Made by a program: the position numbers. Source: a virus (lineage: Duplodnaviria; Heunggongvirae; Uroviricota; Caudoviricetes). From it: a stretch of DNA of 46,428 bases. The first letter of the stretch is position 1, and each line of letters starts with the position of its first letter. The DNA lies in IMG/VR virus record IMGVR_UViG_2622736468_000002; one strand, written 5' to 3'. This document shows, piece after piece, positions 9,001 through 12,000 of the stretch.

Positions 9001-12000
9001 TCGATCTTGCAGAACGTCTGGCCAATTTTTTTAAGGGTGAAATCAGCGAAATGCAGATTCTTTATCCGGCACGTTTTCAATCTAGCCAAAACCAGAATGG
9101 GTTTAAACCACAGGAACAGGAGGTAAGCCGTGGGTAATCATCACTGGAAAGTGGAAAAACAGCCTGAGTGGTACGTGAAAGCTGTCAGAAAAACTATCGC
9201 GGCGTTGCCGGGGGGTTACGCTGAAGCTGCTGAGTGGCTGGATGTAACAGAGAACGCATTATTCAACCGCCTTCGTGCTGAACCGCCCCGGGAATCCTGG
9301 AGACTAAACTTCCTGAGAAAGAGGTAAACAGGATGACTAAAAATACTCGTTTTTCCCCCGAAGTCCGTCAACGGGCAGTCCGTATGGTTCTGGAAAGTCA
9401 GAGCGAATATGACTCACAATGGGCGACAATTTGTTCCATTGCTCCAAAGATTGGCTGTACGCCGGAGACTCTGCGTGTCTGGGTTCGCCAGCATGAGCGG
9501 GATACCGGGGGCGGTGATGGAGGGCTCACCACCGCTGAACGTCAGCGTCTGAAAGAGCTGGAGCGTGAAAATCGTGAACTGCGCCGCAGTAACGATATCC
9601 TTCGCCAGGCTTCCGCTTATTTTGCGAAGGCGGAGTTCGACCGCCTCTGGAAAAAATGATGCCACTGCTGGATAAGCTGCGTGAGCAGTACGGGGTCGGA
9701 CCGCTATGCAGCGAACTGCATATTGCCCCGTCAACGTATTACCACTGTCAGCAACAGCGACATCATCCGGATAAACGCAGTGCCCGTGCGCAGCGCGATG
9801 ACTGGCTGAAGAAAGAGATACAGCGCGTATACGATGAAAATCACAAGGTATACGGTGTGCGTAAAGTCTGGCGTCAGTTGTTACGGGAAGGTATCAGAGT
9901 GGCCAGATGCACTGTGGCACGTCTCATGGCGGTTATGGGACTTGCCGGTGTTCTCCGGGGTAAAAAGGTCCGTACGACCATCAGCCGGAAAGCCGTTGCC
10001 GCAGGCGACCGCGTAAACCGTCAGTTCGTGGCAGAACGACCTGACCAGCTGTGGGTGGCTGATTTTACTTACGTCAGCACATGGCAGGGCTTCGTCTATG
10101 TGGCGTTCATCATTGATGTGTTTGCCGGATACATCGTGGGGTGGCGGGTCTCATCGTCCATGGAAACGACATTCGTGCTGGATGCACTGGAGCAGGCGTT
10201 ATGGGCCCGTCGACCGTCCGGCACGGTCCATCACAGTGATAAAGGTTCTCAGTATGTATCGCTGGCCTACACACAGCGGCTTAAGGAAGCCGGATTACTG
10301 GCATCAACAGGAAGTACAGGCGACTCGTATGACAACGCGATGGCGGAGAGCATCAATGGTCTTTACAAAGCGGAGGTAATACACCGTAAGAGCTGGAAAA
10401 ACCGGACAGAAGTGGAGCTGGCCACACTCACGTGGGTGGACTGGTATAACAATCGACGATTGCTGGAAAGGCTGGGCCATACTCCTCCGGCAGAAGCAGA
10501 AAAAGCTTATTATGCTTCCATCGGAAACGATGATCTGGCAGCCTGAGTTCACAGATAAAACACTCTCCAGGAAACCCGGGGCGGTTCAGGGCGTGTGGCT
10601 CACCGTTGTGAAGGAGATACACGCAGACATTTCCCGCGCCTGACTGAGAGAGCACAGGAGCCGGAACCACAACCAGTTCGTGAAACCAGACCTGTGCGCA
10701 ATTTCTGTGTCGGCACTAACGACCCGCAGGTGATTTTGTGCCTGACTCGCCAGGCGGAAGAACTGGAGTCCAGGGGCTTATTCCGTCGAGCTGCAACGGT
10801 GTGGATGGAGGCATTCCGTGAAAGCCACTCCCAGCCAGAACGAAACAATTTTCTGGCGCATCGTGAGCGGTGCTTACGGAAAAGCAGCAAGCGCGCTGCA
10901 TCGGGTGAAGAGTGGTATCTGTCAGGGAATTACGTGGGGGCTTAATGAGTAATAAATATTGCCAGGCGCTGGTGGAGCTGCGGAACAAACCAGCCCATGA
11001 ACTGAAGGAAGTGGGCGATCAGTGGCGCACGCCGGACAACATTTTCTGGGGAATTAACACCCTGTTTGGCCCGTTTGTTCTGGATCTGTTCACTGATGGT
11101 GATAACGCCAAATGTGCCGCTTATTACACTGCGGAAGACAACGCGCTGGCGCATGACTGGTCTGAACGTCTTGCGGAGCTTAAAGGTGCTGCCTTTGGTA
11201 ATCCCCCGTACAGCCGCGCCAGTCAGCATGAGGGGCAATACATCACCGGCATGCGTTACATCATGAAACATGCCAGTGCCATGCGTGATAAAGGCGGGCG
11301 CTATGTTTTCCTGATCAAAGCTGCCACCAGCGAAGTGTGGTGGCCGGAAGATGCAGATCATATTGCTTTTATTCGCGGGCGTATTGGTTTTGAACTGCCT
11401 GCCTGGTTTATCCCGAAAGACGAAAAGCAGGTGCCAACAGGTGCTTTCTTCGCTGGTGCTATTGCTGTTTTCGACAAGACCTGGAAGGGACCGGCAATCA
11501 GCTACATAGGGCGCGATGAACTTGAGGCATGTGGTGAGGCGTTTCTGGCGCAGGTTCGCCAGCAGGCGGAAAAACTGGTCAGGGAGATGGCGGCATGACG
11601 ACGTTAACTCAATGCCAGCAGCAGGTGCTGGATATGCTGATTTCTTATCAGAAAGAACGTGGCTTCCCGCCAACCAATCAGGAGGTGGCAACCATGCTGG
11701 GATACCGTTCGGTGAATGCAGCGGTGGAGCATCTTCGCGCACTGGAGAAAAAAGGCGTCATCACGATAAAGCGTGGCGTGGCCCGGGGGATAACGCTTCA
11801 TACTGCGATGAAGGACGACGACAGCGAGGCGGTCGGGATTATCCGCGCACTGCTTGCCGGTGAGGAAAACGCAAGGCTGCGTGCAACCCACTGGTTACAT
11901 GAGAGGGGCCTGAAAGTATGAAGCTAATACTGCCTTTTCCGCCCAGCGTGAACACGTACTGGCGACACCCCAACAAAGGGGCGTTTGCTGGTAAGAGCCT

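Follow-up and report, generated by a model that had tools for sequence, protein, structure and literature searches.

A phage family joining a LexA-type DNA-binding domain to a conserved helical hairpin: candidate RecA-insensitive LexA analogues in lambdoid prophages

What would a temperate phage do with the DNA-binding half of LexA if the protease half is left out? The question is raised by a small gene, here called lexA-like, in IMG/VR virus record IMGVR_UViG_2622736468_000002, a stretch of 46,428 nucleotides from a member of the Caudoviricetes (referred to below as the window). A sequence-only reading of this DNA had proposed that the product could occupy SOS boxes without being cleavable after DNA damage. 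The follow-up analysis described here leads to an answer in two grades. It is near-certain that the protein is functional, binds DNA sequence-specifically through a winged helix of LexA ancestry and lies beyond inactivation by RecA*, where DNA binding as such is what we infer from fold and conservation. That it acts as a RecA-insensitive analogue of LexA, taking LexA-type operators once the host LexA has been cleaved, is a tentative reading to which we assign somewhat less than an even chance. The gene and the two parts of its product are located as follows.

11595–11921, plus strand: lexA-like gene, 108 amino acids (aa); product identical to RefSeq WP_000210143.1, 'LexA family transcriptional regulator'
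11595–11804, plus strand: LexA-type winged helix-turn-helix (HTH), residues 1–70, with helices 6–22, 28–35 and 40–52 and a beta-hairpin wing 56–68
11820–11918, plus strand: conserved two-helix hairpin, residues 76–108, with helices 73–88 and 93–103; no LexA counterpart; predicted local distance difference test score (pLDDT) about 90

Residues 1–65 cover the complete Pfam model PF01726 LexA_DNA_bind (positions 1–65 of 65; E=2.9e-19, 69 bits against a gathering threshold of 23.7), and phmmer against PDB sequences retrieved the N-terminal domain of E. coli LexA (E=6e-16), to which the protein is 51% identical over 69 residues. The AlphaFold2 model used was alignment-based (pLDDT 83.6); a single-sequence model (pLDDT 58.6) was too poor and was discarded. 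The model consists of three helices and a beta-hairpin wing (6–68), a low-confidence stretch (71–75) and a confident two-helix hairpin (73–88, 93–103). Its predicted fold matched the LexA-DNA crystal structure 3jso with a root-mean-square deviation of 0.9 A, and 1leb was also matched. Structural comparison with the LexA DNA-binding domain was the refuting test named beforehand, and it returned clear predicted similarity; together with the PF01726 match and the sequence identity, it bears out the likeness to the LexA N-terminal winged HTH that the sequence-only reading had put forward.

The protease half is missing. No Pfam Peptidase_S24 match, i.e. no domain carrying the counterparts of the catalytic Ser119 and Lys156 of LexA, was found in the chain, which stops at residue 108, and the NCBIfam lexA equivalog TIGR00498 was matched at profile positions 1–91 of 203 only (70.4 bits against a cutoff of 110.95). 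The absence of the autoprotease had thus been read correctly. The description of the product as a DNA-binding domain only has to be amended, since the S24 domain is indeed lacking but the last ~35 residues form a conserved extra helical module. Fold searches with the model returned no solved homologue of this C-terminal tail, which, judging from the predicted structure, may be a dimerisation or partner-binding module. Compared with E. coli LexA (PDB 1lea, 3jso), the protein therefore shares the N-terminal winged HTH and differs in having the helical hairpin (~35 residues) in place of the S24 C-terminal domain, as well as a Val where LexA has Glu44.

The HMMER alignment extends as far as LexA residues 84–86 and places A88-G89 opposite the Ala84-Gly85 cleavage site (LLAGE versus VAAGE). 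This alignment of AGE with AGE, and the finding that relatives adjoin dinI or recA, could be taken to mean that the product is a protein decoy, offering a cleavage-site-like segment to the LexA or cI protease or to RecA* and thereby impeding host LexA turnover or RecA* itself. The cleavage site of LexA requires its Gly, however, and the Ala-Gly pair is not kept in the family: relatives have Lys, Asn, Asp or Glu in place of Gly89, and the prediction makes the segment a helical part of the hairpin rather than an extended cleavage loop. The extreme constraint on the DNA-binding domain described below (ratio of nonsynonymous to synonymous substitution rates, dN/dS, of 0.016) also speaks against such a decoy, which we regard as very improbable, and a cleavage-site mimic was rejected. 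Since the protein has neither a cleavage site nor the catalytic Ser/Lys nor a RecA*-binding domain, RecA* cannot inactivate it.

Exhaustive and profile searches delineated a coherent family of 105–135 aa in E. coli/Shigella, Salmonella, Citrobacter, Cronobacter, Klebsiella, Enterobacter, Atlantibacter and Hafnia. Every member, even at about 40% identity, combines the LexA winged HTH with this helical hairpin (consensus EAxxLxxxLxAGxxxAxxxAxxxLxxxG), and the architecture is conserved across at least nine genera; a contig scan of genomes added only Shigella, Citrobacter and one weak Verrucomicrobia match. As an object the gene is not new, being common and already catalogued in thousands of genomes. 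It is present in 2233 of 5426 complete E. coli genomes (about 41%) and in 50 phage records, among them the infective phages SfV, mEp460 and Ayreon. Its DNA is identical (100%) in O104:H4 and other strains, and 94–99% identical to the copies of SfV, SfII, SfIV, mEp460, cdtI and Stx2a/Stx2c/Stx2k phages. The SfV copy is orf42, labelled 'unknown', and the gene is listed as pham 237 in a pangenome study of Shiga toxin (Stx) phages (PMC8136144). The PHROG 362 profile matches the whole chain (residues 1–108 to profile positions 1–106 of 106, E=1.2e-59); the protein is a member of this PHROG 362 / SfV orf42 family with no sequence-level difference, and its gene sits where that family does in lambdoid phages, ahead of RusA, DUF968 and Q in the delayed-early block. 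In addition to the RefSeq name, 'LexA DNA binding domain protein' and, for PHROG 362, 'transcriptional repressor' are in use, all of them names based on homology alone; some deposited names are wrong ('SOS-response repressor and protease LexA', 'RecA-mediated autopeptidases'). New here are the conserved C-terminal two-helix hairpin as the hallmark of a 105–135 aa Enterobacteriaceae family and, as described below, the strength of purifying selection, the pattern of retained base-contact residues and the SOS contexts of the family.

Both parts of the protein are under purifying selection, with extreme constraint on the DNA-binding domain: among 94 distinct intact alleles dN/dS was 0.127 overall, 0.016 for residues 1–70 and 0.278 for residues 76–108. 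These values describe close alleles, the Citrobacter, Cronobacter, Klebsiella and Salmonella homologues being saturated at synonymous sites. Because only half of LexA is carried, and because the window prophage is damaged by an insertion sequence (IS) and deleted, the gene might be thought a decaying remnant of a captured lexA with no present function. The number of intact alleles and their overall dN/dS, the retention of the architecture to 40% identity over at least nine genera and the presence of the gene in infective phages leave this explanation a chance close to nil; with such selection and conservation, we consider a dead remnant refuted for practical purposes.

Which DNA might such a protein read? 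Identity to LexA is unevenly spread, amounting to 4/17 residues (24%) in helix 1, 10/13 (77%) in the core of the recognition helix (helix 3) and 10/16 (62%) in the wing, i.e. it is highest in the parts that face DNA, with the helix 3 core and the wing lying far above helix 1. The wing of LexA is credited with setting SOS-box spacing (PMC8565304). LexA is reported to contact bases through five residues, Ser39, Asn41, Ala42, Glu44 and Glu45 (PMC3091678); four of them are kept, as S39, N41, A42 and E45, and Glu44 is exchanged for Val. The E. coli-type protein remains a plausible candidate binder of SOS boxes or near-variants.

The setting of the gene indicates when the protein would be made. Its neighbours on either side overlap it.

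10945–11598, plus strand: phage N6-adenine methyltransferase gene (dam); its stop shares an ATGA overlap with the lexA-like start
11582–11586, plus strand: Shine-Dalgarno-like GGGAG within the 3' end of dam, 8 nt before the lexA-like ATG
11918–12313, plus strand: rusA, Holliday-junction resolvase; its start shares an ATGA overlap with the lexA-like stop

The ATG of the lexA-like open reading frame (ORF; 11595–11921, plus strand) is the first start codon past the upstream in-frame stop. The ATGA motifs at both ends agree with the translational coupling to the methylase and rusA that had been proposed from the 4-nt overlaps, and the assignment to a nin-like region was likewise sound, the gene lying in the delayed-early block equivalent to lambda nin. 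As its translation accompanies that of Dam and RusA in the rightward delayed-early operon, the protein would be made only upon prophage induction or infection. The overlap of both gene ends with the neighbours leaves E. coli-type loci without adjacent intergenic space for a private operator. A dam promoter annotated in SfV is weak, and its -35 is altered in the window.

The coupling to Dam and RusA could also point to an accessory or controller subunit, which would set the expression or targeting of the methyltransferase by analogy with the C proteins of restriction-modification systems, or would recruit RusA or the DUF968/HNH nuclease to DNA. A Dam, D12 or C5 methyltransferase lies directly upstream in E. 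coli, Salmonella, Cronobacter and Atlantibacter loci, and DUF968/HNH follows downstream in every locus examined, with Q behind it where the locus extends that far. RusA is downstream in all loci examined except two Klebsiella sets, which include the dinI and recA loci. The upstream neighbour varies, however: besides methyltransferases it can be a replication gene (replication-type in mEp390), dinI or recA, and it is not a methyltransferase in the dinI/recA Klebsiella loci or in Enterobacter. Gene order in nin regions is mosaic for the most part. C proteins have an Xre-type HTH, not the LexA-type winged helix found here, and act at the promoter of their own gene; the methyltransferase neighbour is not universal. 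The dam product matches PADLOC type II and orphan methyltransferase models; the methyltransferase excepted, the lexA-like protein and its neighbours gave no meaningful match in these defence-system libraries, and the annotation around the lexA-like gene lists no restriction gene. An accessory role appears unlikely to us, if less so than the decoy.

SOS boxes bear on the preferred reading, a RecA-insensitive analogue of LexA. They were sought with a position weight matrix made from some 22 boxes of E. coli, with 300 Markov-simulated windows as background. The window contains two boxes of at least 21 bits, and none was found in the 300 simulated windows. These boxes and the genes they adjoin are:

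8087–8779, minus strand: cI-like repressor gene (HTH + S24), cleavable type
8551–8570, unstranded: strongest SOS box, TACTGTTTTTACATACAGTA, within the cI-like gene at the HTH-protease linker codons N-T-V-C-K-N-S
12359–12378, unstranded: strong SOS box, TACTGTATTTATGAACAGTG, between rusA and the KilA-N gene, 100 bp before KilA-N
12476–13291, plus strand: KilA-N domain gene, past rusA

A near-identical box is present within the annotated cI-like gene of Cronobacter prophages (loci L087/L088, ~2190), and a Citrobacter prophage has one at a similar offset (L084, 1865). The recurrence of the in-cI box suggests selection at the DNA level; no promoter obviously controlled by it was seen. All 13 phage-collection records with this cI also carry the lexA-like gene, the internal box being confirmed in the window and in mEp460, the sole scanned record among the 13. 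The box at 12359–12378 occupies the same offset in related loci, and the box/KilA-N module occurs in SfIV and PhiR49_1 as well; five out of five phage-collection records with this module carry the lexA-like gene. An intended matched control, 80 loci retrieved by DUF968, gave only nine without the lexA-like gene, several of them short loci, since the other 71 carried it. A sigma70 promoter scan around the 12359 box yielded no passing promoter for the KilA-N gene; by eye, a weak TTGATA-N17-TAAGTT can be read.

A box in this position is reminiscent of the LexA-controlled antirepressor circuits of temperate phages, i.e. 186 Tum, N15 AntC and those of Salmonella Gifsy (PMC8044961, PMC3121763), in that it lies upstream of an antirepressor-type gene (KilA-N, Rha/ANT). 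Rha/ANT or ORF6N/ANT antirepressor-type genes occupy the KilA-N position after rusA in Cronobacter and Atlantibacter phages. The known circuits differ in having host LexA as the sole repressor and no phage LexA-like protein, and the window adds a cleavable S24-type cI.

Two further observations concern SOS boxes in related phages. A third recurrent box, TACTGTAAAAATA(A/T)(A/C)CAGT(G/T), is located at the start of a DNA methyltransferase gene after Q in many of them (L001 19155–19174; SfV, L092, 34170; mEp460, L093, 41021; L176 9301, with a methyltransferase of the N6_N4 class); this post-Q module is absent from the window. In mEp460 (L093), two adjacent strong SOS boxes precede a phage dinI (23255–23302), so that this carrier of the lexA-like gene also has an SOS-regulated RecA modulator elsewhere in its genome.

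The closest connection to the SOS circuit is found in a subfamily of 130–135 aa in Klebsiella and Enterobacter phages, where the lexA-like gene lies in an operon with an SOS box at its head:

L089, 5385–5404: SOS box, followed by dinI, an ORF and the lexA-like gene
L180, 2293–2312: SOS box, followed by dinI, an ORF and the lexA-like gene
L177, 3536–3555: SOS box, followed by a full-length phage recA, an ORF and the lexA-like gene
L175, 4560–4579: SOS box, followed by a small ORF and the lexA-like gene

A -10-like hexamer, read by eye, overlaps or abuts the operon-head box. From this arrangement the lexA-like gene is probably SOS-inducible in these phages, and the recurrence of SOS-headed operons in independent gene arrangements ties the family to the SOS circuit. 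A separate feature of these loci is a gap of ~40 bp before the lexA-like start codon (GGCCTGAACAACC...ACCTGCTGCG.C.CGGAGAG; L089 5960–6000, L177 4958–5000, L175 4961–5000), which is near-invariant between Klebsiella and Enterobacter, in contrast to the diverging coding sequence on either side; the gap does not hold an SOS box.

How could such a protein act? In the reading as a RecA-insensitive LexA analogue, a proteobacterial LexA N-terminal domain would have become fused to a phage-specific two-helix hairpin that replaces the S24 dimerisation/autoprotease domain. Two copies would pair via the hairpin, with the conserved LexA-type wings contributing on DNA. The targets would be canonical SOS boxes or close variants, the two prophage boxes and host SOS promoters being the candidates, and repression would be re-established at LexA-type operators during the destruction of host LexA. 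Possible outcomes are that the host SOS response is damped, or that LexA-controlled phage genes are shut off in lytic growth (KilA-N/antirepressor-type genes and those of co-resident prophages). Kim and Little reportedly showed in 1992 that the free N-terminal fragment of LexA still binds operators and dimerises on DNA, and Neher et al. are said to have found in 2003 that this fragment represses in vivo unless removed by ClpXP. Renewed repression of SOS operators thus seems feasible. The C-terminus of the lexA-like protein has no VAA-type ClpX signal. A dimeric LexA-type binder without an S24 domain can also be built in another way, as two tandem LexA_DNA_bind domains in one chain are found in the metagenomic proteins P0132, P0133, P0147, P0153, P0155 and P0161, one of them PTPS-fused.

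A bolder version makes the protein a RecA-proof second LexA, silenced by host LexA via the operon-head SOS box in some phages, released by damage, and then re-closing SOS operators on the host chromosome, in the phage's own cI gene and at the LexA-controlled antirepressor genes of its own and rival prophages. We hold this extended version, including its list of operators, to be doubtful.

Several findings weigh against an SOS-box binder even in the simpler form. None of about 128 full-length family members has Glu at position 44, and positions 44–46 vary with the subfamily, reading VEH for E. coli, TDM for Cronobacter, NDH for Atlantibacter, AEH for Salmonella/Enterobacter, either LLH or AEH for Klebsiella and AGH for one type of Citrobacter. 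The hosts of these subfamilies have essentially one LexA and one SOS box in common, so that the drift argues against strict mimicry family-wide, and a divergence in operator specificity accounts better for the helix 3 pattern than strict mimicry does. The idea of a protein occupying SOS boxes without being cleavable stays plausible on the sequence evidence, and is weakened in part by Glu44 and the helix 3 drift. About 45% of 80 lexA-like loci have no strong SOS box within 6 kb, and the whole genome of SfV has a single strong one; with so many loci lacking a nearby strong box, there is no obligatory linked operator. The co-occurrence of the box modules with the lexA-like gene is confounded by physical linkage and shared ancestry, and host LexA alone explains the phage SOS boxes, so that a phage-encoded binder is not required. 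Pairing via the hairpin is itself a step that we infer from a predicted structure, and our literature search found no experimental or functional study of the enterobacterial family. Finally, the sole characterised phage protein of the LexA N-terminal domain type, gp6 of the Bacillus thuringiensis tectivirus GIL01, activates from a different palindrome and is no SOS-box decoy (Fornelos et al. 2018, PMC6182141).

The protein gp6 is, by analogy, the closest characterised relative in kind. It is a truncated LexA homologue that binds GaCACAnnTGTGaC, a palindrome of its own differing from the SOS box, and activates the late promoter P3; Lys38 is the key residue, and no extra domain follows the wing (PMC6182141). 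Both gp6 and the enterobacterial proteins are phage-encoded LexA DNA-binding domains without a protease domain, and the latter differ in their conserved C-terminal hairpin and in a recognition helix much nearer to the LexA of their hosts. A tblastn search of 50,697 phage records with the lexA-like protein (E<=1e-3) found no tectivirus match; the phages retrieved were enterobacterial, apart from a few other Gram-negative or uncultured ones.

The precedent of gp6 leads to the alternative that the family consists of phage-specific transcription factors which have drifted off the SOS box and use an operator of their own in the phage genome, as repressor or activator. Such a factor would time the KilA-N/Rha gene, DUF968, Q or the late methyltransferase and not the host SOS regulon. 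The family-wide loss of Glu44 with subfamily-specific residues at 44–46 is what diverging specificities predict, many lexA-like loci have no SOS box nearby, and a C-terminal module unlike that of LexA means that half-site spacing could differ. The window itself is less favourable to an own operator. A search for inverted repeats from 7.0 to 17.5 kb found only OR-type repeats near cI/cro and nothing recurrent; the E. coli subfamily retains S39, N41, A42, E45 and the wing; the overlapping gene ends leave no adjacent intergenic site in E. coli-type loci; and the late genes are already under the Q antiterminator. We consider an own operator a serious possibility, with a likelihood of roughly a third.

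As to its carrier, the window is a lambda-like prophage with the order integrase, cI, cro, Dam, lexA-like, RusA, KilA-N, DUF968/HNH, Q, tRNAs, lysis and head/tail genes, the head and tail genes being lambda-type. The features that frame the region are:

1–1311, minus strand: integrase
9279–10588: IS3-family element, 1310 bp, with two overlapping transposase ORFs and terminal inverted repeats TGAACCGCCCCGG...
13293–14288, plus strand: DUF968/HNH gene
14291–14677, plus strand: Q antiterminator gene, marking the end of the delayed-early (nin-like) block

The IS3-family element, which looks like IS629/IS1203, stands in place of 2.7 kb kept by a prophage of E. coli O104:H4 that is nearly identical elsewhere. 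With this segment went the 3' end of ymfL, a Rha-family gene, a small ORF, a replication gene and the 5' end of a PerC-like gene. The window prophage is without that replication gene because the IS insertion replaced the segment holding it, and the prophage is probably defective. Past Q, and before an ORF of 653 aa, are tRNA genes for Met-CAT, Arg-TCG and Arg-TCT (16721–16970); in the O104:H4 prophage a comparable tRNA cluster follows Q, with a SASA-family esterase gene directly behind it.

The lexA-like gene is carried by Shiga-toxin, cytolethal-distending-toxin and Shigella serotype-converting phages, whose induction, spread and release of toxin are driven by the SOS response. Were the product an uncleavable LexA analogue, the family would constitute a widespread viral brake or timer on SOS, with a bearing on prophage competition in polylysogens, antibiotic-triggered Stx production and SOS mutagenesis. 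If it is a second LexA in the bolder sense, an induced phage would govern the length and strength of the SOS response, which could affect the induction of toxin phages in an Stx polylysogen. If it uses an operator of its own instead, it would be an unrecognised regulator of the delayed-early to late transition of lambdoid phages. Phage specialists are unlikely to be surprised by the gene as such; what makes it a worthwhile target is how common it is in toxin-converting phages and how it is wired into operons under SOS control.

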